Source of the DNA: Candidatus Levyibacteriota bacterium
Lineage (GTDB): Bacteria; Patescibacteriota; Microgenomatia; Levybacterales; UBA12049
Assembly: GCA_029260965.1 (NCBI GenBank)
Contig: JAJDCG010000002.1
Location: forward strand, 1 to 58,522
Reading direction: 5' to 3'
Length of the DNA stretch: 58,522 bases
Below are positions 7,945 to 51,389 of this stretch, piece by piece. The translations under genes were made by a program, and so were the position numbers. Position 1 is the first letter of the stretch; each line of letters starts with the position of its first letter. The notes under the pieces are model-generated. The model saw only the letters and a list, made by a program, of their open reading frames with translations. It made no database searches and was not told the DNA's origin.

Positions 7945-8514
7945 ATGGTTTTATCGGATCAGGACATTAAAAAAGCTTTGGATTCAAAAAGAATTCTCAT
8001 AAAACCAAAGCCAGACTTGGACAAACAGCTTGGTAGTTGTTCGATTGATCTCAGGCTTGGGGACACATTTCGCGTTTTTGATCACTCCAGACACGCCTAC
8101 ATAGATCCTGCGCAAAAAGATTACAGCAATGAAATTACAAAGGTTATAAAAGTACCCAAAGATGGCAGTTTTATTATGCAGCCTGGAGAATTTGTGCTTG
8201 CTGTTACACTTGAATCGGTGAAAATTCCGTCTGATTTGATGGGTCGGCTTGAGGGGCGTTCATCTTTAGGTCGTTTGGGCTTGGTTGTTCACTCAACTGC
8301 CTCTATTTTTGATCCCGGTTGGGATGGAAATCCTGTGCTTGAGCTTGGAAATTTAGGTCGTATGGCGCTTAAATTGACTGTTGGGATGCGGATTTGCGCA
8401 ATGACTTTTGAAGAACTAAGTAGTAAGTCGATTAATCCTTATTCCAAGAAAAGGTATGCAAAGTACAGATTTCAAAAAGGACCTGAAGAGAGTAGGATAC
8501 ATGAGGAGAAATAA
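7945..8514 (+). CDS. dcd: dCTP deaminase
   Basis: MVLSDQDI start, SIDLRLG, GRSSLGRLG, DPGWDG and LELGN. The upstream extension to 7870 in the ORF track is not homologous. Confidence 0.93.
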   Translation: MVLSDQDIKKALDSKRILIKPKPDLDKQLGSCSIDLRLGDTFRVFDHSRHAYIDPAQKDYSNEITKVIKVPKDGSFIMQPGEFVLAVTLESVKIPSDLMGRLEGRSSLGRLGLVVHSTASIFDPGWDGNPVLELGNLGRMALKLTVGMRICAMTFEELSSKSINPYSKKRYAKYRFQKGPEESRIHEEK

Positions 8515-8548
8515 AACTCGAATATCGTGTTTCGGATTTCGGATTTAA
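8514..8548. repeat. Degenerate heptamer tandem repeat between dcd and tmk
   Basis: AAACTCG AATATCG TGTTTCG GATTTCG GATTTAA. Confidence 0.6.
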
Positions 8549-8551
8549 GTT

Positions 8552-9262
8552 ATGAAGTATCACATTGATTTTGACATTGAATTTAAACGAAACCCCCACA
8601 AGGGGCTTTATATTGCGCTTGAGGGCATAGATGGGTCTGGAAAAACCACACAAATTGATAAACTCTTTGAGTATTTTAAAAAACAAGGCAGGGAAGTTGT
8701 CAAAACTCGTGAGCCAAGAAAAGATGATGGTTTGATAGGTGAGCTGATTCAAAAAATTCTTAATGGAAAGACCAAAGTGCCCTCAATTGCAATTCAGTAT
8801 TTATTTAGTGCTGATCGGGGCATGCATCATTCAGAGCTTATAGAACCTGCATTGAAAGCAGGAAAGATTGTAATCTCCGATAGATGTTTTTGGTCAGCTG
8901 TTCCATATGGAATTTTGGATTTGGATCAGGAATTTGATCCAAATAGCGCGAGATATATCATGGTCGCACAAAGCATACTTTCTATGTATCATCAATTTAT
9001 AACCCCAGACAATACTATTTATCTTGATATTCCAGTTGAGCGCGCTATTGAAAGGCTTTCAAAAATGACTCATGAGAAAGAAATTTATGAAGAAAAACAA
9101 AAAATAAAGAAAGCAAAAGAGGGTTATGAATGGCTCTTGAAACAATTTCCAGAGGAGTTTAAAATAATTGATGCGACAAAAAGCGTTGAGGAGGTGGCGA
9201 CCGAAATCCTCTCGGTAATTAATCAATCATCAAGCAGATTCATCAAAAAATTGGATAATTAG
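8552..9262 (+). CDS. tmk: Thymidylate kinase
   Basis: P-loop EGIDGSGKTTQ, TREP, LFSADR and ISDR. Confidence 0.95.
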   Translation: MKYHIDFDIEFKRNPHKGLYIALEGIDGSGKTTQIDKLFEYFKKQGREVVKTREPRKDDGLIGELIQKILNGKTKVPSIAIQYLFSADRGMHHSELIEPALKAGKIVISDRCFWSAVPYGILDLDQEFDPNSARYIMVAQSILSMYHQFITPDNTIYLDIPVERAIERLSKMTHEKEIYEEKQKIKKAKEGYEWLLKQFPEEFKIIDATKSVEEVATEILSVINQSSSRFIKKLDN

Positions 9263-10020: not shown

Positions 10021-10998
10021 ATGGCAGGTCAAAAACATCCAGAATATCAATATCTAGAGCTTTTGAAAGACATTCTCAAAAATGGCGTTGTAAATGTGGA
10101 TCGGGGGACTGGGGTCAAATCATACAGCGTTTTTGGCAGGCAGTCTAGGTATGATTTGTCTGAGAGCTTTCCTCTTCTTACCACCAAAAGAGTTTATTGG
10201 AATGGGGTCCTCAAAGAGCTTTATTGGTTCATGTCAGGGGATTCCAATATCAAATATCTAGTTGATAACAATGTTCATATCTGGGATGATTATCCCTACA
10301 AAATATATAGCAAAAAGCAAAAAGCAAAAAGCAAAAAGCTGACAAAAGAAGAGTTTATACAAAAAATCGCAAACGATAAAAAATTTGCCAAAAAGTGGGG
10401 CGAGTTGCCCAGAATTTATGGCGAGATGTGGAGGAGATGGCCGACTCGGAAAAAAGGCAAAACAGTTGATCAGCTAGGATGGTTGATCAAGGAGTTGCGT
10501 GATGATCCAGATGCCAGAAATGCGATAGTTAACAGCTGGAATCCTGAATATCTCTATACAATGGCTGATAAGAAAGATACATCTTATTTCCCAATTTGCC
10601 ACAATATGTATCAGGTAAGTGTCAAAGATGGTAAGTTATCATTGCACTTGTATCAGAGGAGTTGTGATATGTTTCTTGGCGTGCCGTTTAATATCGGCAG
10701 TTATTCGCTTTTGGCTGTGATTTTGGCAAAAATCTTGGGGTACAAGCCAGGTGAATTCATCCATACATATGGAGATGCACATATTTATGAAAATCACGTG
10801 GCACAAGTCAGGGAGCAGTTAAAGAGAAAGCCTCGTCCTTTTCCGAGGCTAAAACTTGGTAATTTTAAAAATCTTTCCGATTTCAGACCAGAGAAAGTTG
10901 AGCTAGTCGGCTACGAACCACACCCGACCATCAAGGCGGAGTTGACGGTCGCGGGGGGATATTTTGAAGGAAAGAAAAAATCAAAAAGTAAAAAATAA
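10021..10998 (+). CDS. thyA: Thymidylate synthase ThyA
   Basis: DRGTG, FPLLTTKR, catalytic PICH, YQRSCDMFLGVPFNI and GDAHIYENH. Confidence 0.98.
   Translation: MAGQKHPEYQYLELLKDILKNGVVNVDRGTGVKSYSVFGRQSRYDLSESFPLLTTKRVYWNGVLKELYWFMSGDSNIKYLVDNNVHIWDDYPYKIYSKKQKAKSKKLTKEEFIQKIANDKKFAKKWGELPRIYGEMWRRWPTRKKGKTVDQLGWLIKELRDDPDARNAIVNSWNPEYLYTMADKKDTSYFPICHNMYQVSVKDGKLSLHLYQRSCDMFLGVPFNIGSYSLLAVILAKILGYKPGEFIHTYGDAHIYENHVAQVREQLKRKPRPFPRLKLGNFKNLSDFRPEKVELVGYEPHPTIKAELTVAGGYFEGKKKSKSKK
10309..10339 (+). repeat. In-frame (AGCAAAA)x4 heptamer repeat inside thyA
   Basis: Four perfect copies plus AGC, encoding SKKQKAKSKK. Confidence 0.9.
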
Positions 10999-11070
10999 AA
11001 TCCCATTCTCCTCATTTTCAATTTTTAAAAAACGGAAAAAACATAAAAACAAAACATCCTAATTACCTCG

Positions 11071-11559: not shown

Positions 11560-11592
11560 AGGAGGGATTGTATGAGGGGTTTTGGATAATCA

Positions 11593-11743
11593 GGAATTAG
11601 GAACTTGGGATTAGGAACTTGGGATTGGGGATTCAGAATTAAGGATTTAAACTATGAATTAAGTACTAGATGCCGAGAAGATCAAGAAGATCAAAGAGAT
11701 GCAGGATATTAAAAATATTAGGTAAATTACTAAGAATAGTAGA
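11593..11743 (+). repeat. Mosaic of degenerate 7-mer then 9-mer tandem repeats upstream of folA
   Basis: GGAATTA GGAACTT GGGATTA GGAACTT GGGATTG GGGATTC AGAATTA..., then GCCGAGAAG ATCAAGAAG ATCAAAGAG ATGCAGGAT ATTAAAAAT ATTAGGTAA ATTACTAAG. Confidence 0.8.
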
Positions 11744-15527: not shown

Positions 15528-15983
15528 ATGGTAAAAGTAGACATAAAACAACTTAAAAAACTGAGAGATGAGACATCGGCGTCAATTGCTGACTGTAGAA
15601 AAGCACTTGAAGAGACAGGTGGTGACTACAAGAAAGCACTTGAGTGGATAAAAAAGAGAGGAATCGAAAAAGCTAGTAAAAAAGCTGATCGAGAGACATC
15701 CCAGGGAATTATTGATTCATACATTCATCAGGGTGGAAAAATTGGCGTGTTGGTTGAAATTGCCTGCGAAACAGATTTTGTTGCAAAAACTGATGAGTTT
15801 AAGAATCTATCACACGAAGTCGCTATGCAGATATCTGCTATGAATCCAAAAAGTGTTGATTCTCTCCTGAAGCAGGATTATATCCGAGACGGATCACAAA
15901 CCATAGAAGATTTGGTTAAGAGTGCGATAGGGAAATTGGGAGAAAATATAACAGTAAAACGTTTCGCGCGTTTTGAGATATAG
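15528..15983 (+). CDS. tsf: Elongation factor Ts (short single-subdomain form)
   Basis: LRDETSASIADCRKAL, ACETDFVAK and KLGENITVKRF. Follows rpsB. Confidence 0.97.
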   Translation: MVKVDIKQLKKLRDETSASIADCRKALEETGGDYKKALEWIKKRGIEKASKKADRETSQGIIDSYIHQGGKIGVLVEIACETDFVAKTDEFKNLSHEVAMQISAMNPKSVDSLLKQDYIRDGSQTIEDLVKSAIGKLGENITVKRFARFEI

Positions 15984-18341: not shown

Positions 18342-19523
18342 ATGTTGACTGGACTTATCTTTCTTCTAATATTATCAGTACTTGTTCTTATTCATGAGGC
18401 GGGGCATTTTTTTGTGGCCAAAAAATTAGGAATCAGGGTTGAGGAGTTTGGCTTTGGGCTACCACTGACAAAGGCTCTCTTTTCTGTTAAAAAGGGTGAG
18501 ACAACATATTCTTTCTATCCTGCGCTCATTGGTGGGTTTGTAAAAGTTTACGGTGAGGATGAGGCAGGAGCAGGACGGATAAAAATAAGCAATAAGCAAC
18601 AAGCAATAAGCAAAAAAGACGAGAAACGGGCGTTTTTTAGTCGCCCACTTTGGCAGAGATTTTCTGTAATTTTTGCAGGGGTTCTGATGAATACATTTCT
18701 TGCTGTTGTGATTTATTACGTATTTCTTGGTATCTCAGGGTTTAGAACAGAGCTCCCGCTTTTGGGGGATCATCAGTTTTTTGCAGTGAATCAGGAAAAC
18801 AAAGCAGACATTATTTTTCGTCAGGTGGTTGCTGGATCTCCAGCTGCAGATGCAGGGATTACTCCTTTTTCAAAGCTAATTTCTGTCAATGGTCAAGAGA
18901 TCTTAAGTGTTGATCAGTTTACAGAATTGATTGATTCAAACAAAGGAAGCGAGCTCACTATTGCATGGCAAAATACTGAGACAGGGAGAGAATTTAGTCA
19001 GGAGCTGACACCACGCATTGATCCACCAGAGGGAGAGGGCGCACTCGGAGTTGTCTTTTTCCCAATAAGCACAGCTGTGCTTGACTATACAGATCCTGTA
19101 GATAAAGTTTTTTCAGGTTTTACTCATCCAGCCAACTTGATGGTTTACAATTTCAAGATCATAGGGCAATTGATTGACATTTCGGTCAAAGAAGGTACGG
19201 CAGAGCCAATCAGCCAGGGTGTATCAGGTCCTATTGGTATTTACTCAGTTGTTGGTGAGGTTTTAAGCATTCCTGATATGAAGGAAAGAGTGTTGCAGGT
19301 TCTCAATCTAGCAGGATTGCTATCCATCTCACTTGCCTTTTTCAACGTTTTACCAATTCCAGGTCTTGATGGAGGACGGCTTTTCTTTTTAGGAGTTGAG
19401 GCAGTAACTAGAAAAAAGCTAAATCCCAAATTTGAAGCCTATGCCAATGCTATTGGTATGGCGGTGTTGATTGCTCTGATTGTTGTGGTAACATTTAAGG
19501 ATATCTTCCAGCTTTTTGGGTAA
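18342..19523 (+). CDS. rseP: Site-2 (M50) intramembrane zinc metalloprotease with PDZ domain
   Basis: IHEAGH, FGFG, a PDZ region (VVAGSPAADAGI), GVSGPIGI and NVLPIPGLDGG. Confidence 0.95.
   Translation: MLTGLIFLLILSVLVLIHEAGHFFVAKKLGIRVEEFGFGLPLTKALFSVKKGETTYSFYPALIGGFVKVYGEDEAGAGRIKISNKQQAISKKDEKRAFFSRPLWQRFSVIFAGVLMNTFLAVVIYYVFLGISGFRTELPLLGDHQFFAVNQENKADIIFRQVVAGSPAADAGITPFSKLISVNGQEILSVDQFTELIDSNKGSELTIAWQNTETGREFSQELTPRIDPPEGEGALGVVFFPISTAVLDYTDPVDKVFSGFTHPANLMVYNFKIIGQLIDISVKEGTAEPISQGVSGPIGIYSVVGEVLSIPDMKERVLQVLNLAGLLSISLAFFNVLPIPGLDGGRLFFLGVEAVTRKKLNPKFEAYANAIGMAVLIALIVVVTFKDIFQLFG
18584..18611 (+). repeat. In-frame heptamer repeat inside rseP
   Basis: AATAAGC AATAAGC AACAAGC AATAAGC, within the segment encoding ISNKQQAIS. 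Confidence 0.88.
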
Positions 19524-26290: not shown

Positions 26291-27997
26291 ATGAAATATT
26301 CACACCTTTTTGGAAAAACAATTAAAGATGTGCCAAAAGATACCAGTTTAACTTCACATAAATTGCTTTATCAAGCAGGATTTATAAGGGAAAGTACAGC
26401 AGGGCGATATTATTTCTTGCCTCTGGGACAAAGAGTTCAGCAGAAAATCATAAAAGTAGTCAAAGAAGAAATGGATCGCGCTGGAGCGCAGGAAATTGTG
26501 GCGCCAATTCTTCATCCGCTTCATTTGTGGCAGGAAACCAACCGTGATAAGGCCGACTTTGGCCTTTTGAAAATAAAGGATAGACGAGAGATGGAATTTG
26601 TTCTTGGCGGGACGGCTGAGGAAATGCTGGTTGATTTGGTGCGTAAGTTTCAAACTAGTTACAAAGACTTGCCTTTTCAACTTTATCAATTTGCATCCAA
26701 ATTCCGAGACGAGCTTCGTGCTCGGGGCGGACTCTTGAGGGTCCGTGAATTTATCATGAAGGATGGATATTCATTTCATGCCTCAGAGAATGATTTCAAG
26801 AAAGAATATAAAAAAATGTCAAAAACTTACACAAAAATATTTGAGCGAGTCGGACTTGAGACGTTCATGGTTGCTGCTGACAACGGCGATATAGGTGGGG
26901 AATATGCCCATGAATTTCAGGTAAAGTCAGGTGCAGGAGAAGATACCATTTTTTATGTTCCATCGAAAAAGCTTTATTTTAATAAGGAAATCGCACCAAC
27001 TATGGCAGCTCCGTTTGACCAGAAAGGCGAGGAGCCAAGACCAATGGAGGATGTTGTTGGAAAAGGAATTATCGGTGTTGAGGCATTAGCAAAATTCTTA
27101 AATATTCCAGTTGAGGCAACAACCAAAACACTTCTTTTTGAAACCGAAAAAGGTGATATTGTCGCAGCAGCAGTAAGAGGGGAATATGATATTGACGAAA
27201 CCAAGCTAAAAAGAGTAATTGGTTGTCAGAGCATTACGTTAATTACGCCTGAGAAGATTAAGGAGCTGACTGGAGCAGAGGTCGGATATGCAGGAATTCT
27301 TAATCTGCCAAAGCATGTAAAAATATTCATGGATGACTCGATGAAAGGAAGAGTAAATTTTGAGATGGGGTCAAATAAAACAGACATACATGTGATTAAT
27401 GTAAATTTTGGACGGGATTTAGAAATGCCTGAAAGATTTTATGATTTCAAAGAAACACGAGCAGGAGATTTTTATCCTGAGACAAAGGAAGCATATGAAA
27501 CTTTTCGTGGAATTGAAGTAGGAAATATTTTTCAGCTTGGTTATCACTATTCAAAAAAAATGAAGGGTGCTACTTTTATCGATGAAGAGGGTAATGAAAA
27601 GCCCTACTATATGGGTTGTTATGGAATAGGAATTGGGCGGACGCTGGCTGCGGTGGTTGAGATAAATCATGATGATAGGGGAATAATATGGCCTGATTCA
27701 ATTGCGCCGTATCAGGTGCATCTGATAGGAATTACGAATAATGAATCAAAAATTAGGCAAGAAGCAGATGAAATTTATGAGAAATTGCAGGATGCGGGAA
27801 TTGAAGTTTTATACGACGATCGGGAAGATGCATCAATTGGCAACAAATTTGCTGATGCTGATCTGATTGGAATCCCTGTGCGTTTGGTTGTCAGTAAAAA
27901 AACTGGGGACAAAATAGAGTGGAAAAAAAGAACAGAGAAGGAATCAGAATTGTTGAATTTTGACGAAGTGCTGGGAAGAATAAAGAAGCAAGGTTAA
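26291..27997 (+). CDS. proS: Proline--tRNA ligase (bacterial type with editing insertion)
   Basis: FRDELRARGGLLRVREFIMKD, GIEVGNIFQLG, MGCYGIG and an anticodon-binding domain (KFADADLIGIP). Confidence 0.98.
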   Translation: MKYSHLFGKTIKDVPKDTSLTSHKLLYQAGFIRESTAGRYYFLPLGQRVQQKIIKVVKEEMDRAGAQEIVAPILHPLHLWQETNRDKADFGLLKIKDRREMEFVLGGTAEEMLVDLVRKFQTSYKDLPFQLYQFASKFRDELRARGGLLRVREFIMKDGYSFHASENDFKKEYKKMSKTYTKIFERVGLETFMVAADNGDIGGEYAHEFQVKSGAGEDTIFYVPSKKLYFNKEIAPTMAAPFDQKGEEPRPMEDVVGKGIIGVEALAKFLNIPVEATTKTLLFETEKGDIVAAAVRGEYDIDETKLKRVIGCQSITLITPEKIKELTGAEVGYAGILNLPKHVKIFMDDSMKGRVNFEMGSNKTDIHVINVNFGRDLEMPERFYDFKETRAGDFYPETKEAYETFRGIEVGNIFQLGYHYSKKMKGATFIDEEGNEKPYYMGCYGIGIGRTLAAVVEINHDDRGIIWPDSIAPYQVHLIGITNNESKIRQEADEIYEKLQDAGIEVLYDDREDASIGNKFADADLIGIPVRLVVSKKTGDKIEWKKRTEKESELLNFDEVLGRIKKQG

Positions 27998-31103: not shown

Positions 31104-31489
31104 TGGAAAACGTAAATGTACTTATATACGTAGAGAGTAGATATAAATTAAACCGCAAGAAAGTTAAGTCTGCTATTTATTCCGTATGCGAACAGAATAA
31201 AATAACAACGCACGTGGAGGTGTCTGTTGCTGTGGTCGGGGACCGAAAGATGAAGTCTCTCAATAAAAAATATCGCAACAAAGACGGTACTGCAAATATC
31301 CTGACTTTTCCATTATCTGAGGGCGGTGCAACCCCGTCAATATCAGGTAAAGAAAAATTGGGGGATATTGTGATTTCTTATCCACAGGTTATCAGAGATG
31401 CTAGTCGTGAAGAAATGCTGGTTGATGAGAGAATTGAGCAGTTAGTCATACATGGGATGAATCACCTACTGGGTTTACACCATGAATAA
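31103..31489 (+). CDS. ybeY: rRNA maturation endoribonuclease YbeY
   Basis: LNKKYRNKD, ILTFP, LGDIVIS and HGMNHLLGLHH. Confidence 0.93.
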   Translation: MENVNVLIYVESRYKLNRKKVKSAIYSVCEQNKITTHVEVSVAVVGDRKMKSLNKKYRNKDGTANILTFPLSEGGATPSISGKEKLGDIVISYPQVIRDASREEMLVDERIEQLVIHGMNHLLGLHHE

Positions 31490-31566
31490 ATTTAAAATGC
31501 GAAAATCAAAATTTGAAATTGCAGGTAAAAAGGCAAAATTTTGATTATTTACTTTTAATTTTAGTT
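31488..31566. repeat. Degenerate heptamer array followed by an inverted array, between ybeY and dnaX
   Basis: AAATTTA AAATGCG AAAATCA AAATTTG AAATTGC ... TTTTGAT TATTTAC TTTTAAT TTTAG. Confidence 0.6.
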
Positions 31567-31570
31567 TATT

Positions 31571-33070
31571 ATGGTTTTCTATAGAAAATACAGGCCACAG
31601 AAAATAGCTGAACTAGACAGTATTTATATTCGAGAAACACTAGAATCTGTTTTGAGAAAAAATACTCCACACGCCTTTTTATTTACAGGACCAAAAGGTC
31701 TTGGTAAAACTTCTACAGCACGCATAATCGCAAAAGCAGTGAATTGTGAAGCACGCAGTACAAGTCAGATTGAACCTTGTAATAAGTGCGAACAATGTAA
31801 ATCCATAACAAATGGTACGAATATGGACGTGATTGAAATTGACGCAGCAAGCAATCGAGGTATTGATGAAATTCGTGAGTTAAAAGAAAAAATTAGATTA
31901 TCACCATTTTCTGCTAGGTGCAAAGTCTATATAATCGATGAGGTTCACATGCTTACAACTGAGGCATTTAATGCGCTTCTGAAAACACTTGAGGAACCGC
32001 CAGAACATGCGATGTTTATGCTTGCGACAACTGAGCCTCACAAGGTTCCACCTACGATCATTTCAAGATGTTTTCATCTCAGTTTCAATCGCGCAACAGA
32101 CAATGAGATAATTCATTCTTTGGAGAGAATTGCAAAGGGTGAGAAGCTTGATGTTGAAAAGGGTGTTTTTGCTCAAATTGCTGTTATGTCAGATGGTGGG
32201 TTCAGGGACGCTGCCAAAATAATGGAGGAGGTCTCAAGCAAATCAAATGGCAAAAAAATAACAACAGATTTTTTGGAAAAGAAATATCAAACATCTTCGG
32301 TTAAGGGTTTTGTGGTAGAGGTGCTGAAGTCAATTTCTGAGAAAGATCCTCAAAAAGGACTTTTAATTGTACAAGAGTTGGTGAAAAAAGGCATAAATAT
32401 AAAAAATTTTCTTGAGGAGTTGATGGCACATCTCCATAGCCAGATGCTTCATAAGGTAGGTGTGGAAAAAGACAACCGTGTTTATACTGATCTCGATTTG
32501 TCTCTGGATGAAATAGGGGCAATTATTGAGATTATGTCAAAAGCGTATCAGGAGACAAAGAGTGCTGTTATAGAAGAATTACCACTGGAGCTCGCGATTA
32601 TTGAACATGCCCAGAATAAGGCTGATAAAGAAAGTGTTAATACTGATGAGCAGTCAGACGAAGATGCTTTTGATGACGTAGCTGATTTAAGGAAGAAAAT
32701 TGGAAACATAGAAAGAGCAAGACAGCTCAATGGTACTGTGGGAAATAAAGAAAAAAAAGTTCTCAAAAAACCAATTATTTCTGAGGGAGTGAAGCTTACG
32801 AATCATGCTGCTGATGAGAAAAGTAAAGAATGGAAAGACAATCTTTGGAACACCCTTATTCAAGAAATGAAAAATCACAATCATACAGTGGCAGGACTCC
32901 TCAGGGGATGCACTCTCAAGAGTTATGATAATAAAGAGCTAGTGATTGAGACTTCTTTCAAATTCCACAAAGATAAATTAAATGATGTCAGAATAGCTGA
33001 ACAGTTGGCAGGAATATGCAAAATGCTAACTGGAAATAATGTTGATATTGTTGTAGAATTGAAAAAGTAA
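31571..33070 (+). CDS. dnaX: DNA polymerase III subunit gamma/tau
   Basis: YRKYRP, GPKGLGKTSTAR, CNKCEQC, EIDAASNRG and IIDEVHML. Confidence 0.97.
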   Translation: MVFYRKYRPQKIAELDSIYIRETLESVLRKNTPHAFLFTGPKGLGKTSTARIIAKAVNCEARSTSQIEPCNKCEQCKSITNGTNMDVIEIDAASNRGIDEIRELKEKIRLSPFSARCKVYIIDEVHMLTTEAFNALLKTLEEPPEHAMFMLATTEPHKVPPTIISRCFHLSFNRATDNEIIHSLERIAKGEKLDVEKGVFAQIAVMSDGGFRDAAKIMEEVSSKSNGKKITTDFLEKKYQTSSVKGFVVEVLKSISEKDPQKGLLIVQELVKKGINIKNFLEELMAHLHSQMLHKVGVEKDNRVYTDLDLSLDEIGAIIEIMSKAYQETKSAVIEELPLELAIIEHAQNKADKESVNTDEQSDEDAFDDVADLRKKIGNIERARQLNGTVGNKEKKVLKKPIISEGVKLTNHAADEKSKEWKDNLWNTLIQEMKNHNHTVAGLLRGCTLKSYDNKELVIETSFKFHKDKLNDVRIAEQLAGICKMLTGNNVDIVVELKK

Positions 33071-34461: not shown

Positions 34462-35406
34462 ATGAAAATATTTAGTGGGAGTTCCAATAAGCCGCTTGCT
34501 GAGAAGATTGCGGCTAATTTAGGCCTTGGCTTGAGCCCTGTAGAGATATTTGTTTTTCCTGATGGTGAGCGGAGGATCAAGTTAAATGAGAAAGTGGTAA
34601 ATGAGGACACGATCGTTGTTCAGTCAACTGCAACACCAGTTGATAATAGTTACACAGAATTATTCTTTATCATTGATGCCTTGAGGCGGTCTGGCGCGAA
34701 ATCTGTGACAGTTGTGATGCCATATGTTGGTTATCAAAGACAAGATCATATTTTTCGAGAGGGTGAGGCGGTTTCTCTGAGGGTGATGATAAATATTCTT
34801 GAATCACTTGGAGTTGATCGGATTATCACGCTTGATCTTCACAGTATCAAAATTCCTGAGTTTTTTAAGATCCCACAGACTGAGCTTTCAGCTCTGTCGA
34901 TGTTTGCTAAGGAGATAAGGGATATTGTAAATTCAAAATCCGAAGCGCAAAATTCGGATTTGAGCGTAATTAAAAATTCTGTTCTTGTCTCTCCTGATAT
35001 GGGAGGATTGCGGCGCATTAAAATTATCTCTACTCTGCTAAATATGCCTTGGATCGCCACGGTCAAGGATCGTGATCTGGATACGGGTGAGATAGAAATT
35101 GGCCGTTTGGACGGGGTGCTGCCAGAGGGTGCTAGAGCAGCTTTCATAGTAGATGATATGATTTCAAGCGGCAAGACTATCGTAAAGGCAGCAAATTTAC
35201 TCAGGGAGAATGGTCTGGAGGAGATATATGTATTTGTGACACATCCGATTTTTTCAGCTGATGCATCAGAACTTTTACAAAAATCTGATATTCAAAAAGT
35301 TTTTGTGACAGACAGCGTTTTTGTGCCAGAGGAAAAGCTATTTGAGAAACTTGAAATACTCAGCGTTGCGGAGATAATCTCGAAGGAATTAGGAATTAGG
35401 AATTAG
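34462..35406 (+). CDS. prs: Ribose-phosphate pyrophosphokinase, paralog 2
   Basis: MKIFSGSS start, FPDGE, PYVGYQRQDHIFREGE, LDLHS, SPDMGG and VDDMISSGKT. Confidence 0.93.
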   Translation: MKIFSGSSNKPLAEKIAANLGLGLSPVEIFVFPDGERRIKLNEKVVNEDTIVVQSTATPVDNSYTELFFIIDALRRSGAKSVTVVMPYVGYQRQDHIFREGEAVSLRVMINILESLGVDRIITLDLHSIKIPEFFKIPQTELSALSMFAKEIRDIVNSKSEAQNSDLSVIKNSVLVSPDMGGLRRIKIISTLLNMPWIATVKDRDLDTGEIEIGRLDGVLPEGARAAFIVDDMISSGKTIVKAANLLRENGLEEIYVFVTHPIFSADASELLQKSDIQKVFVTDSVFVPEEKLFEKLEILSVAEIISKELGIRN

Positions 35407-35419
35407 GAATTAGGAATTA
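35385..35419 (+). repeat. (GGAATTA)x5 perfect heptamer repeat spanning the prs2 stop and recR start
   Basis: Five exact copies. The last A is the A of the recR ATG. Confidence 0.95.
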
Positions 35420-36027
35420 TGCGTATACCAAAAGCAATTACCAATTTAGTTGAAAGTTTTGAGCGTCTTCCTGGGGTGGGTCCCAAGTCAGCACAAAGGC
35501 TTACTTTTTATCTTTTACACGTTCCACAGGGTGAACTTGATAAATTTGCTTTATCTATCCAAAAGCTGAAAGTCGATACAGTTATTTGTTCAATTTGTCA
35601 GGCGGTTGACGAGAGCGATCCTTGTAGTATTTGTAGTGATGACAGACGGGACAAGACTATGATTTGTGTTTTGGAGGAACCTCTTGATGTGCTGGCTCTT
35701 GAAAAGTCAGGAAAATATAAAGGAGTCTATCACGTATTGCATGGACGAATTGATCCGTTGAATAATATCGGGCCCGAGGAGATACGCATCCAGCAGCTTA
35801 TGGATAGAATTAGGAATAAAGATTTAGGAATTAGGGAGGTTATTTTGGCGACAAATCCGACAATGGAGGGGGAGGCAACAGCGATGTTTATCGCAAAACA
35901 ACTCAAGAGTGTGAATCGGGAATTAAGAATTACACGAATAGGTAGAGGTCTGCCTACAGGTGCAGATATAGAATATGCAGATAGTACAACTCTTGACCAA
36001 GCTCTTTCGGGTAGGATGGATTATTAG
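35419..36027 (+). CDS. recR: Recombination mediator RecR
   Basis: LPGVGPKSAQR, C4 zinc finger, YHVLHG, ILATNPTMEGEAT and RGLPTG. Confidence 0.98.
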   Translation: MRIPKAITNLVESFERLPGVGPKSAQRLTFYLLHVPQGELDKFALSIQKLKVDTVICSICQAVDESDPCSICSDDRRDKTMICVLEEPLDVLALEKSGKYKGVYHVLHGRIDPLNNIGPEEIRIQQLMDRIRNKDLGIREVILATNPTMEGEATAMFIAKQLKSVNRELRITRIGRGLPTGADIEYADSTTLDQALSGRMDY

Positions 36028-36859: not shown

Positions 36860-38272
36860 ATGCTTAGACTCTACAACTCACTCACGAAAAAAGTAGAAGA
36901 ATTTAAACCGATAGATGAAAAAAAGGTCGGAATTTATACCTGTGGGCCAACTGTTTACCTTTTCCAACATATTGGTAATTTTCGTTCATTTGCAACAGCA
37001 GATTTTTTGATCCGCGCACTCCGTGCGAATGGACTGAAAACAAGATTTGTGATGAACATCACAGATGTTGGTCATATGACTGATGATCAGGTAGGTGGCG
37101 GAGACATGGGTGAGGACAAGATAGAAAAAGCAGCTGCCAGAGAGGGAAAATCAGTGTGGGAGGTGGCGAAATTTTACACAGATACATTTCTCAAAGATTA
37201 CGAACTTCTTAATCTAACCCCTGCCGATAAATTATGCAAAGCTACAGATCATATCAGAGAGCAGATTGACCTCATAAAGCAAATTGAAGAAAAAGGTTTT
37301 ACATATCAGATAAATGATGGGATTTATTTTGATACCTCAAAGCTTAAAAACTATGGTCAGCTTTCATCACTTGATGAAATCAAAGAAGGTGCTAGGGTTG
37401 AAAAAAATGATGAGAAGAAAAATCCACGTGATTTCGCGCTTTGGAAGTTTTCTCCAGTAGGTGAGCGTCGTCAAATGGAGTGGAAAAGTCCGTGGGGAGT
37501 AGGATTTCCAGGGTGGCATATCGAGTGTTCGGCTATGAGCATGAAGTATCTGGGAATTTCTTTCGATATTCATACAGGAGGCGTAGACCACAAGGAGATT
37601 CACCATCCAAATGAGATCGCGCAGTCAAAAGCTGTAACAGGCAAAAACCTTGCCAATTTTTGGATTCATACAGCATTTATGCAGGTTGCTGGCGACAAAA
37701 TGAGTAAAAGTCTGGGAAATACATATACTCTTTATGATCTGGAGAAAGAGGGTTACGAGCCACTCGCTCTTCGCTATTTGTACTTACAAACTCACTACAG
37801 ACAGGAGATGAATTTTACCTATGCTGCACTTGATGGAGCACAAAATGCACTTAGGAGGTTATGGAATGATGTATCGCGCTGGGAGGATCCGTCGGCAAGC
37901 TCAGGGCAGGTTCAGAAAGATTTTGATGAATATGAAAAGGCTTTTTTTGAAGCTGTTAATGATGATCTTAACATGTCTAAAGCATTGGCAGTGATGTGGG
38001 TGCTTGTAAAATCAGATAATCCAACAGGTGCCAAATCCCGTCTGCTTTTCAAGATGGACGAGGTGCTAGGTCTGGATATAGAGAAGAAAAGTGCGGAGTT
38101 AAAAAAACAGGCAGGTCTAGTGCCAGACCACATCAGGGAAATGCTTGAAGAGAGAGAATCGTTGAGAAAAGACAAAAGATATAATCTCGCAGATCAAATG
38201 AGGCGCAAAATTGAAAAATTGGGATATGTAGTGGAGGATACAAAAAAGGGAGCCAAAGCGAGAAAGAAGTGA
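36860..38272 (+). CDS. cysS: Cysteine--tRNA ligase
   Basis: CGPTVY, HIGN, DFALWK, GWHIECSAM and KMSKS. Confidence 0.98.
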   Translation: MLRLYNSLTKKVEEFKPIDEKKVGIYTCGPTVYLFQHIGNFRSFATADFLIRALRANGLKTRFVMNITDVGHMTDDQVGGGDMGEDKIEKAAAREGKSVWEVAKFYTDTFLKDYELLNLTPADKLCKATDHIREQIDLIKQIEEKGFTYQINDGIYFDTSKLKNYGQLSSLDEIKEGARVEKNDEKKNPRDFALWKFSPVGERRQMEWKSPWGVGFPGWHIECSAMSMKYLGISFDIHTGGVDHKEIHHPNEIAQSKAVTGKNLANFWIHTAFMQVAGDKMSKSLGNTYTLYDLEKEGYEPLALRYLYLQTHYRQEMNFTYAALDGAQNALRRLWNDVSRWEDPSASSGQVQKDFDEYEKAFFEAVNDDLNMSKALAVMWVLVKSDNPTGAKSRLLFKMDEVLGLDIEKKSAELKKQAGLVPDHIREMLEERESLRKDKRYNLADQMRRKIEKLGYVVEDTKKGAKARKK

Positions 38273-49414: not shown

Positions 49415-49458
49415 AATTGCTTATTTTTTATTTCTCCATAATTCATAATTTTCTATTT

Positions 49459-50451
49459 TTAATTTTTTCTTCTAACAACTTCTCTAACGGCGTTTTTGAT
49501 TGCAGGTACGTCCATCTTATATTTTTTGAGAAGTTGTGCGGGTGTTCCTGTTTCTGCAAAGGTGTCCTGAAGACCTATAAAAGAAATAGGCAGTGGTGTA
49601 GTGCGGGCGAGGGTCTCTGCGATCGCGCTACCTAGTCCTCCTGTAATTTGATGGTCCTCAACTGTTACAACAGCACCAGTCTGTCTGGTAAAATTAAGTA
49701 TACCTTCTATATCGATTGGCTTGATAGTTGAGGCATTTATCACTTGCACATTTACCCCTTCTTTCTCCAATTCGGATGCTGCAACTAGCGCATAGTAAAC
49801 CATATAGCCCATTGCAAAGATGGTAACCTGGGGATTGTTGCCTTGCCAAAATTCTTGCATTCTCCCAGGTGTAAATGGAGTTTTACTGGTTGTAATCAGG
49901 GGAGTCTTATCACGGGAATAACGAAGATATACAGGGTTTTTTGTTTTACCTGATGCGATAGTTGCTTTTTCTGCCTCGATTGCATCACATGGAACATAGA
50001 TTTCAATATCTGGCCAGCAGCGAGTGGTGGCAATATCTTCAGTTGCTTGATGAGTTGCTCCATCCGGGCCTGTCATGATTCCTGAATGATGGCCTGCAAT
50101 TTTTACATTGGATTTATTATATACAATAGTTGTTCTGATCGTTTCCCAATTTTTGCCAGGAGAGAAGGTGGCATACGATGATATAAAAGCTGTTTTGCCT
50201 GTCACTCCAAGTCCTGCTGCAATTGCTGCCATATTTTGTTCGGCAACACCGACCTGAAAAAACCGTTCAGGGAATTTTTCGGCAAAAAGATGTACCTGGG
50301 TTGACTCTGTTAGATCAGCAGAAAGCGCAACAACATTTGGATCTTCTTTACCAAGCGCCACGAGACCAGTGCCAAATCCAGCTCTTGTTGGTTTCTTCTC
50401 AACGTCAGTGTCAAATAATTTTGTATTAAGATTTAGGTTTGGATTTAACAT
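49459..50451 (-). CDS. tktB: Transketolase, C-terminal (pyrimidine-binding) subunit
   Basis: LSADLTES, VGVAEQNM, GPDGATHQ, YLRYSR and VEDHQITGGLGSA. Confidence 0.93.
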   Translation of the reverse strand: MLNPNLNLNTKLFDTDVEKKPTRAGFGTGLVALGKEDPNVVALSADLTESTQVHLFAEKFPERFFQVGVAEQNMAAIAAGLGVTGKTAFISSYATFSPGKNWETIRTTIVYNKSNVKIAGHHSGIMTGPDGATHQATEDIATTRCWPDIEIYVPCDAIEAEKATIASGKTKNPVYLRYSRDKTPLITTSKTPFTPGRMQEFWQGNNPQVTIFAMGYMVYYALVAASELEKEGVNVQVINASTIKPIDIEGILNFTRQTGAVVTVEDHQITGGLGSAIAETLARTTPLPISFIGLQDTFAETGTPAQLLKKYKMDVPAIKNAVREVVRRKN

Positions 50452-50485
50452 GTTATTTTTAAATTTATTTTTCTATTTCTTCCCG

Positions 50486-50513
50486 TAATTCATAATTCCT
50501 TATTCATAATTCT
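50486..50513 (-). repeat. Heptamer repeat at the 3' end of the transketolase N-subunit gene
   Basis: Minus strand: AGAATTA TGAATAA GGAATTA TGAATTA. Confidence 0.8.
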
Positions 50514-51389
50514 AGATTTTTCTTCCTCAATTTCCTTCAACGCTACTTTTACTTGTTCATCCTTTGGTGGCGCGCCTTCTACATCCTTGAGGCCTGGAGG
50601 CATGCCGTGCCATTTGTAGCTACCCTCCATATAGGAGACGCCCTTGCCTGGCAAGGTTTTTGCGATGATAATTACTGGTTTGTTTTTGAGATTTTTTGCT
50701 TGAGTAATGGCATCTGAAATTGCATTTATATCATTGCCGTCAATCTCAATAGCATGCCAGTTGAATGATTCATACTTGGCTTTGAAGGGTTCAAGGGGCA
50801 TGGTTTCATCAACTGGCCCATCGATTTGAATATTGTTAAAATCTATTATTTGGATAAGGTTATTAAGTTTTTTATTTCCTGCAAACATAGCTGCCTCCCA
50901 GATGTTGCCTTCTTGGTGTTCACCGTCTGATGTCAGGCAGTAGACTATATAGTCTTTTTTATCCAGGTCGCGCGCTAGTGCGATCCCGATTGCTTGCGAG
51001 AGACCTTCACCCAGAGGTCCAGATGTATTCTCGATTCCCGGAAGTATGCCACGGTGAGGATGTCCCTGCAGTCGTGTCTCAAAACCACGGAATGTTTTCA
51101 ACTCACTGGTTGGAAAATAGCCAGAAAGAGCAAGGCTTGCGTAGAGAACTGCGCAAATATGGCCGTTTGAGAGGATGAGTCTGTCGCGGTCAGGGTCATC
51201 TGGATTCTCAGGATTATGTTGGAGGTGATGAAAATAAAGAGTTGTAAATACATCAGCCATGCCAAGTGGTCCGCCTGTATGGCCTGAGCCTGTGTTGTGA
51301 TTTGCACCATCGAGTGCCTCAATTATGAGATGTCTTATTTCGTTGGCTTTGAGTTTTAGTTCTTTTAGTTTATTTTCGTTCATATGCAT
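50490..51389 (-). CDS. tktA: Transketolase, N-terminal (TPP-binding) subunit
   Basis: SGHTG, DRLILSNGH, LQGHP, GPLGEG, SDGEHQEG..WEA and DFNNIQIDG. Confidence 0.93.
   Translation of the reverse strand: MHMNENKLKELKLKANEIRHLIIEALDGANHNTGSGHTGGPLGMADVFTTLYFHHLQHNPENPDDPDRDRLILSNGHICAVLYASLALSGYFPTSELKTFRGFETRLQGHPHRGILPGIENTSGPLGEGLSQAIGIALARDLDKKDYIVYCLTSDGEHQEGNIWEAAMFAGNKKLNNLIQIIDFNNIQIDGPVDETMPLEPFKAKYESFNWHAIEIDGNDINAISDAITQAKNLKNKPVIIIAKTLPGKGVSYMEGSYKWHGMPPGLKDVEGAPPKDEQVKVALKEIEEEKSRIMNKEL

Follow-up and report, generated by a model that had tools for sequence, protein, structure and literature searches.

The 58,522-nt stretch of Candidatus Levyibacteriota DNA described here (contig JAJDCG010000002.1, positions 1 to 58,522, hereafter the window; G+C ~39%) carries short tandem arrays of 7-nt units within and between its genes. 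Pfam confirms the products of the genes discussed below as ThyA, RseP (M50 and PDZ domains), ProS, Prs, RecR, the N and C subunits of transketolase and MalQ, and the genes that host arrays are housekeeping genes. Judged by RecR, the nearest relatives are metagenome-assembled genomes of Candidatus Levyibacteriota (the best, L001, with 88% amino-acid identity), followed by other Microgenomates. The arrays (Table 1) were detected with Tandem Repeats Finder and a lag scan, and were given a 21-position lag-7 score that was tested against codon permutation.

Table 1. Heptamer arrays and related features of the window. Scores are lag-7 scores over 21 positions.
Feature	Position	Strand	Repeat and context	Score	Mismatches
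dcd-tmk spacer array	8530-8546	+	(TTTCGGA)x2.4; ends 5 nt before tmk ATG (8552)	16	
thyA array	10309-10339	+	perfect (AGCAAAA)x4.4 inside thyA (10021-10998)	21/21	
thyA 3'-end array	10971-11000	+	degenerate, A-rich: AAAGAAA AAATCAA AAAGTAA AAAATAA	16	5/28 against the AGCAAAA array
folA leader array	11593-11626	+	(ATTAGGAACTTGGG)x2.2, perfect 14-mer repeat	15	5/28 against the GGAATTA array
rseP array	18584-18613	+	(AATAAGC)x4.3, 91% matched, in rseP (18342-19523)	19	
proS array	27728-27755	+	degenerate, GGAATTA family; residues ~480-489	15	6/28
prs inverted repeat	34929-34963	+	9-bp AAATCCGAA/TTCGGATTT inside prs; hairpin z -2.9	13 (chance)	
prs-recR junction array	35384-35419 (feature to 35421)	+	perfect (AGGAATT)x5.1	21	
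recR site A	35806-35833	+	degenerate, GGAATTA family; residues ~129-139	15	4/28
RecR site B	35890-35937	+	AKQLKSVNRELRITRI, 48 nt; decayed in the window (lag-7 0.37), perfect in several relatives		
Spacer array past the transketolase C-subunit gene	49437-49450	-	(TGAATTA)x2; same unit family as 50486	15	
tkt 3'-end array	50486-50513	-	sense AGAATTA TGAATAA GGAATTA TGAATTA	16	4/28

Over the whole window, lag-7 scores of at least 17 are reached by three segments where codon permutation predicts 0.08, scores of at least 16 by six (1.2 expected) and scores of at least 15 by 13 (3.9 expected). The thyA, prs-recR junction and rseP arrays are each secure on their own. Six or seven further arrays, all degenerate, are credible as well. 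Those with a score of 15 (proS, recR site A, the folA leader and 49437) need support from elsewhere to be believed, and they gain it because relatives carry arrays at the same sites and because the GGAATTA unit is shared. A first-pass annotation, made by a model from the letters alone, had listed heptamer repeats in thyA, rseP, proS, prs (its prs2), recR and malQ, at the tkt 3' end and at three gene junctions. All of its coordinates are correct, and its examples in thyA and rseP and at 35385 are strong; those in tkt, proS and recR and at 8514 (8530 in Table 1) are credible, whereas malQ 54071 (score 11), prs 34929 (13) and 31488 (13) score at the level of chance. The 9-bp inverted repeat that it reported inside prs is real.

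Within the coding regions the repeats are translated and polar, as had been said of them: the peptides are rich in K, Q, S and N. The thyA array encodes S97-K106 (SKKQKAKSKK), between DDYPYKIY and LTKEEF, and the rseP array encodes ISNKQQAISKK. Arrays also form the ends of genes. The degenerate array at the thyA 3' end (78% matches) holds the stop codon TAA (10996-10998), and the array at the end of the gene for the transketolase N subunit has the stop TGA (50492-50490) within its fourth unit. The junction between prs and recR consists wholly of array; it contains the prs stop TAG (35404-35406), AGGA motifs that resemble a Shine-Dalgarno sequence, and the recR ATG at 35419. The 14-mer of the folA leader, ATTAGGAACTTGGG, is made of two alternating GGAATTA-like heptamers.

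The signal is specific to period 7. When codons were permuted inside genes, or synonymous codons were permuted (60 shuffles each), exact two-copy heptamers numbered on average 7-8 in both controls against 15 in the window, and four-copy segments with at least 75% match numbered 1.3 and 2.4 against six, so that the excess over a codon-matched background, on which the first-pass annotation had staked its case, survives both controls. Among periods 5-12, four-copy segments were seen for period 7 alone (three, with none in dinucleotide shuffles), and shuffle controls revealed no excess in the window for the other periods of this range. The survey was then widened to 160 loci, half of them from genomes around recR (80) and half from metagenomes around thyA (80), which together with the window make up 2.02 Mb; an array was defined here as at least three copies with at most one mismatch, and the background was taken from triplet-block shuffles. 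Period 7 yields 116 arrays where 0.6 are expected, a ~190-fold excess. The corresponding counts are 79 against 92 for period 5, 39 against 8.8 for period 6, four against none for period 8 and one against none for period 9; periods 10 and 11, which were counted only and not shuffled, have no arrays. Heptamer arrays are a real, strong and period-specific phenomenon throughout the lineage. Of the 116, 75 (65%) lie inside open reading frames (ORFs), 15 straddle the end of a gene and 26 are intergenic. Coding sequence accounts for a fraction of 0.90 of the survey, and the junction and intergenic arrays (35%) are ~4-fold enriched per base.

Selection filters the arrays within genes, and the filter against stop codons is clear. 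No stop codon occurs in any of the three sense frames of 61 of the 75 coding units (81%), compared with 55% of random heptamers of gene composition; reversed, only 20/75 are free of stops, and among the non-coding units 9/41. The coding arrays contain 47% A and 7% G in the sense strand, and this A-rich, G-poor strand results from the stop-codon filter. Single bases tell the same story. The variant unit AACAAGC of the rseP array has its C exactly where a perfect array would make an in-frame TAA (AAG CAA CAA instead of CAA TAA), a variant base of RecR in L018 likewise falls on a would-be in-frame stop, and at the prs-recR junction an in-frame TAG of the array serves as the stop of prs. Unit number is narrowly distributed in coding arrays (three units in 21, four in 44, five in 8 and six in 1) and more widely in non-coding ones, which reach at least 14 units. 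Arrays as A-rich as these cannot form quadruplexes and yet prefer about four units, which suggests that the preference belongs to heptamer arrays in general and does not stem from a need to form quadruplexes.

When the coding arrays are mapped onto the proteins of the window they fall into hot spots in RseP and ProS, at several places in DnaX, at two in a CysS-type protein (the product of 36860-38272) and at two in RecR, and the units at these shared positions differ between species. In ThyA, the loop between DDYPYKIY and LTKEEF carries heptamer arrays in ~25/80 relatives (an approximate count, made by eye from the alignment), and the units all differ (AAAGTCA, AAAATCA, AGTTCAA, AAACTCA, AAATCTC, AAGCTNA, GAATTAC and others). 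The loop belongs to the small-domain insert of the Lactobacillus casei/Enterococcus type of thymidylate synthase; enzymes of the E. coli type align from query residue 123 on, and we take the insert to be absent from the E. coli enzyme and poorly ordered. Loops with arrays are just 6 to 18 nt longer than loops without. In RseP the array of the window covers residues 81-92, and the same loop holds (AAAATTC)x5 in L048 and a GAAGT-type array in L091; among Levybacteria-like sequences the corresponding slice measures 72-81 nt, and distant orthologues have 36-54 nt, a difference of 24-40 nt. At ProS residue 480 the degenerate array of the window is matched in L001 by about eight AAAAnTC units, and the site there is longer by exactly 21 nt, or three units. 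This is the one case that fits the earlier proposal that only changes of three units are tolerated within a gene. The prs-recR junction of L001 has a degenerate TTAGNNT x5 array, other relatives bear other units there, and arrays at RecR site A are also found in L018, L020, L039, L055 and L063.

RecR site B, AKQLKSVNRELRITRI, is 48 nt long in most of 81 sequences and ranges from perfect arrays to fully decayed ones, such as that of the window. The perfect arrays are built from AAACTCA (L030, L045, L071), AAGTTCA (L008), AAATCTC (L004, L005, L061), AAATCCC (L011) and AACTCCC (L022). L008 and L030 differ at nine places, all of them at the second and third positions of the unit and repeated in every unit; identity is 0.96 within an array and 0.68-0.90 between species. 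Arrays occupy site B in 9 of 80 species and require seven state changes on a RecR tree computed without the repeat columns. At site A the window and L001 are of equal length, and unit position 6 is C in 4/4 units of L001 (AGAATCA-type) and T or A in the window. Since the reading frame differs from unit to unit, selection on the protein cannot yield differences at the same unit position, and we rejected it as the source of the substitutions shared by all units of site B. The alignments show that the RecR arrays undergo concerted evolution in place, without change of length. Arrays with two types of unit, each in at least two copies, are arranged as AABB in 8/11 cases and as ABAB in none; among the detectable four-unit arrangements alone AABB accounts for 8/9 (binomial p ~0.02). 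As the lag-7 detector misses ABAB arrays and is thus biased toward AABB, these figures lend modest support to the copying of units from their neighbours.

The AlphaFold model of RecR (mean pLDDT, the predicted local distance difference test, 89) places site A at the end of helix 124-132, the following turn and strand 140-143, and site B in the last part of helix 149-165, the turn after it and strand 170-174; pLDDT there is >90. Both sites encode a well-ordered helix end, turn and strand in this model, and they are neither floppy loops nor insertions. The view that the repeats occupy permissive surface loops therefore holds for the small-domain insert of ThyA and for the longer loop of RseP and fails for both sites of RecR. 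Insertion of a cassette was considered as the origin of the arrays and rejected, as RecR site B shows no gain in length and the ThyA loop is merely 6-18 nt longer with arrays. The same hot spots are also occupied by GC-rich palindromic mini-insertions (~14-30 nt) that keep the frame. They are found at RecR site B in L013 (CCTGCCTGCCGGCAGGCAGG), L039, L043, L044, L050 and L065, and in the ThyA loop in L087, L091, L106, L130, L134 and L141; in L138, compared with L137, a 27-nt insertion near position 100 interrupts a coding array.

Units are also shared between distant sites. GGAATTA occurs at five sites of the window (11593, 27728, 35385, 35806 and 50486, sense strand, with at most 7/28 mismatches from (GGAATTA)4), while each of 29 composition-matched permuted control units occurs at two sites at most. 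Over all surveyed loci, 23 further sites with the unit of a strong array lie in the same locus at a distance of more than 1 kb, against 8.3 expected from the rate of that unit in other loci (~2.8x, Poisson p ~2e-5); a looser count finds 68, which is 93 per Mb where 28 per Mb are expected. A pairwise test of unit similarity within loci was not significant (p 0.087), and one genome holds several unrelated families of units. In the source sample, 31-mers of pure GGAATTA have a word depth of ~110 against 39 in the flanks, and other contigs carry the same array. Genome-preferred units are the hallmark of STRR-type repeats (short tandemly repeated repetitive sequences), and their apparent presence here is the chief point in favour of the 'spreading' envisaged in the first-pass annotation; it identifies no factor. 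The active repeat-generating process that it also envisaged is upheld by the concerted evolution of RecR, the contiguous AABB units and the recurrence of a unit at sites of a genome that lie far apart.

Outside genes, arrays usually begin at a stop codon or a few bases from it, or end just ahead of a start codon. A hairpin function was considered for the spacers 8512-8554, 31487-31573, 11590-11672 and 50452-50515 of the window and rejected, as they fold no better than shuffles (z-scores of -0.69, 0.14 and 0.43). Four spacers of L071 (60-175, 2040-2160, 2430-2540 and 11030-11150) consist entirely of an A-rich array after the stop codon and an inverted, T-rich partner before the next start, and each pair can form a long hairpin (z -3.5 to -6.8); the same architecture is found at L008:6362-6455 and L045:2008-2108. 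A very long array lies at L005:18547-18650, where at least 14 perfect copies of AGTTGTC begin at the stop codon of a signal peptidase gene and continue as far as the fetched stretch reaches, far exceeding every coding array in length. In the window, the minus strand encodes transketolase in two genes, one for the N-terminal and one for the C-terminal subunit (49459-51389), and GGAATTA/TGAATTA-type arrays lie at both 3' junctions.

Frameshifted alleles are absent from the sequences compared. All 80 RecR and all 80 ThyA orthologues are intact through their arrays, and the junction arrays that were checked lie between complete, unrelated genes, so the possibility that they split genes was rejected. 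The source sample was inspected through the assembler contigs (Logan) of three runs, X1-X3, from biofilm samples. No contigs of alternative array length were found among them, and these contigs end at perfect arrays. An exact look-up of the RecR protein returned the contig of the source sample only (run SRR15505512). In practical terms, the arrays break short-read assemblies and can look like frameshifts. One contig of run X1 with low depth (7.2 against 39) omits 78 nt (26 codons) at 15851-15930 of the window, within the ORF 15528-15983; its source may be a variant strain or a different organism.

What the data show is a specificity for period 7, recurrence at homologous sites, length-neutral concerted evolution, a filter against stop codons and a lack of off alleles. 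We consider it rather probable that they are dispersed, STRR-like heptanucleotide micro-satellites which pervade Levybacteria and other Microgenomates, generated by a slippage-type molecular drive, filtered by selection, and by-products rather than switches. A mutational process with a 7-nt register would make patches of ~4-5 units (28-35 nt) and would keep homogenising them, most likely, we infer, through slipped-strand mispairing or through out-of-register conversion between neighbouring units in replication or repair. Within genes, selection retains net in-frame lengths only, together with units free of stops in three frames and variant bases where a stop would arise, and arrays survive at sites that tolerate sequence rich in K, Q, N and S. 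At co-directional gene junctions they are unconstrained and commonly supply the stop codon, the spacer and a Shine-Dalgarno-like sequence, as between prs and recR. The arrays would then be neutral by-products of 'molecular drive'. Several points weigh against this reading. A single-unit slip within a gene shifts the frame, so homogenisation in place calls for slips in pairs (+7/-7), steps of 21 nt or conversion, and no such event was directly observed. The reading leaves the choice of 7 nt and the patch size of ~32 nt unexplained, and purely local slippage does not predict that a unit recurs far away in its own genome.

It is possible, though on balance doubtful, that a lineage-specific process with a 7-nt register overwrites ~30-nt patches in place with genome-preferred heptamers, in a conversion-like or templated and possibly enzyme-driven manner; if so, protein sequence at dozens of sites, even structured ones, would be a balance of molecular drive and purifying selection. 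That a dedicated trans-acting system (a nuclease/polymerase or a transposase-like or reverse-transcriptase-like protein with its gene elsewhere in the genome) writes or spreads the preferred units into tolerant sites, as the first-pass annotation had suggested, we hold to be unlikely. The recurrence of units within loci (23 against 8.3, p ~2e-5), the five GGAATTA sites of the window (11593, 27728, 35385, 35806 and 50486), the depth of pure-array 31-mers (~110 against 39) and the narrow patch size all agree with such a system, as does the overwriting of even structured protein segments at unchanged length. However, no candidate gene was found in the DNA covered, that is the window and the related loci, one genome contains several unrelated unit families, the pairwise sharing test is not significant (p 0.087), the AABB arrangements and the graded decay seen at each site suit a local process, and the hot spots are explicable by common ancestry plus selection.

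A function in cis, either as a register for single-strand-binding proteins with a 7-nt footprint (for example with a cold-shock domain) or as junction RNA elements that tune translation, coupling or termination, is decidedly improbable. Non-coding arrays do abut stop and start codons and often fill the entire spacer, AGGA motifs precede the recR ATG in the prs-recR array, the inverted pairs of L071 fold well, and one CspB molecule is bound per heptamer according to work cited in PMC4679880. Against this, units vary freely among species at one site, the spacers of the window fold like shuffles, 65% of the arrays lie within genes, and there is no conserved motif beyond an A-richness that the stop filter itself explains. 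Phase-variation switches, in which gain or loss of a single unit toggles a gene, have very little to recommend them. A 7-nt unit does shift the reading frame, and heptanucleotide switches are known in neuO and hmw; but the hosts here are housekeeping genes, the 160 RecR and ThyA orthologues are all intact, the checked junction arrays separate complete and unrelated genes, and the Logan contigs of the three runs contain no alternative lengths. Chance periodicity of A-rich, low-complexity coding sequence, which would account for malQ, prs and 31488 with their scores like those of shuffled sequence, has next to no probability as a general explanation and is already refuted for the strong arrays: perfect arrays of 31 and 36 nt are absent from shuffles, the excess over 2 Mb is ~190-fold and neighbouring periods of the window are without excess.

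Slippage-type micro-satellites, as preferred here, have several known counterparts. The STRR1-3 units of cyanobacteria are CCCCAGT, TTGGTCA and CAACAGT, and phase-variation heptamers include AAGACTC in E. coli K1 neuO and ATCTTTC in H. influenzae hmw. Tandem copies of these five units, or of TAACTGA, GGGAATC or GGGGACT, do not occur in the 2.02 Mb except for one ATCTTTC doublet. The arrays are longer and more numerous than chance (116 against 0.6), as are the long simple sequence repeats (SSRs) of bacteria. Heptamers are the most over-represented class of long SSR in many bacteria, and a link to the contact length of the polymerase has been suggested (Mrazek et al. 2007, summarised in PMC4679880). 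The likeness extends to the dominance of tandem 7-nt units and to slippage as the proposed origin, so far as that survey is described in PMC4679880 and PMC4692102. In the survey as described there, repeats within genes are mainly multiples of three, whereas here 65% of the heptamer arrays are translated in frame and stand in housekeeping genes at positions common to several species; the exclusion of non-triplet units from coding sequence does not apply, with 75/116 wholly within ORFs.

The analogy with cyanobacterial STRR sequences, drawn in the first-pass annotation, is apt, as these too are dispersed heptamer repeats. The GGGAATC and GGGGA(C/T)T repeats of Xanthomonas and Nostoc prefer four units, lie near stops and starts and are under-represented in genes (PMC4692102). 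They and the STRR sequences resemble the present arrays in being dispersed, with about four units per array, positions at stops or upstream of starts and, apparently, few preferred units per genome (PMC4692102); unlike them, the present arrays are rich in A, poor in G (7% of the sense strand) and mostly inside genes, and where STRR sequences are predominantly intergenic the intergenic and junction arrays are here a minority of 35%. TAACTGA direct repeats of marine Beggiatoaceae and cyanobacteria, which occur in 2-6 copies, often directly before start codons, and whose mechanism of spreading is not known (PMC4679880), share the heptamer direct repeat near starts; there one unit dominates each genome and most copies are intergenic, whereas here units are many and arrays are translated. 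The tracts of phase-variable genes (neuO, hmw and the Haemophilus SSRs of PMC2651432) have in common with these arrays a 7-nt unit in or before an ORF and slippage, but they are long, polymorphic in copy number and found in surface or virulence genes, while the present arrays are short, belong to housekeeping genes and showed no off alleles. The tandem repeats of Borgs give disordered protein segments, and their units within genes are divisible by three (PMC9879509). Both kinds are A-rich in the coding strand and add polar, low-complexity peptide to genes; the repeats of Borgs are recent, perfect expansions (PMC9879509), whereas the 7-nt unit here is read in three frames.

Our literature search returned no paper that ties heptanucleotide repeats to Patescibacteria or the candidate phyla radiation. 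Such repeats have been known for decades, their origin and their period of 7 are unexplained, and they have been described as avoiding coding sequence. The novelty here lies in heptanucleotide SSRs that conserved genes tolerate in frame and that evolve where they stand. Arrays within genes provide aligned, selection-anchored sites at which repeat dynamics can be read directly, and since in-place evolution, copying between neighbours, the stop filter and the preferred size of ~4-5 units are all legible at sites in conserved genes, the mechanism becomes testable. A DNA-level process thus shapes protein sequence in the reduced genomes of the candidate phyla radiation. As a minor observation, at L058:323-682 a gene for a PF05635 protein ('23S rRNA intervening sequence protein') has a heptamer array at its end, and a gene for a HAD hydrolase follows directly.

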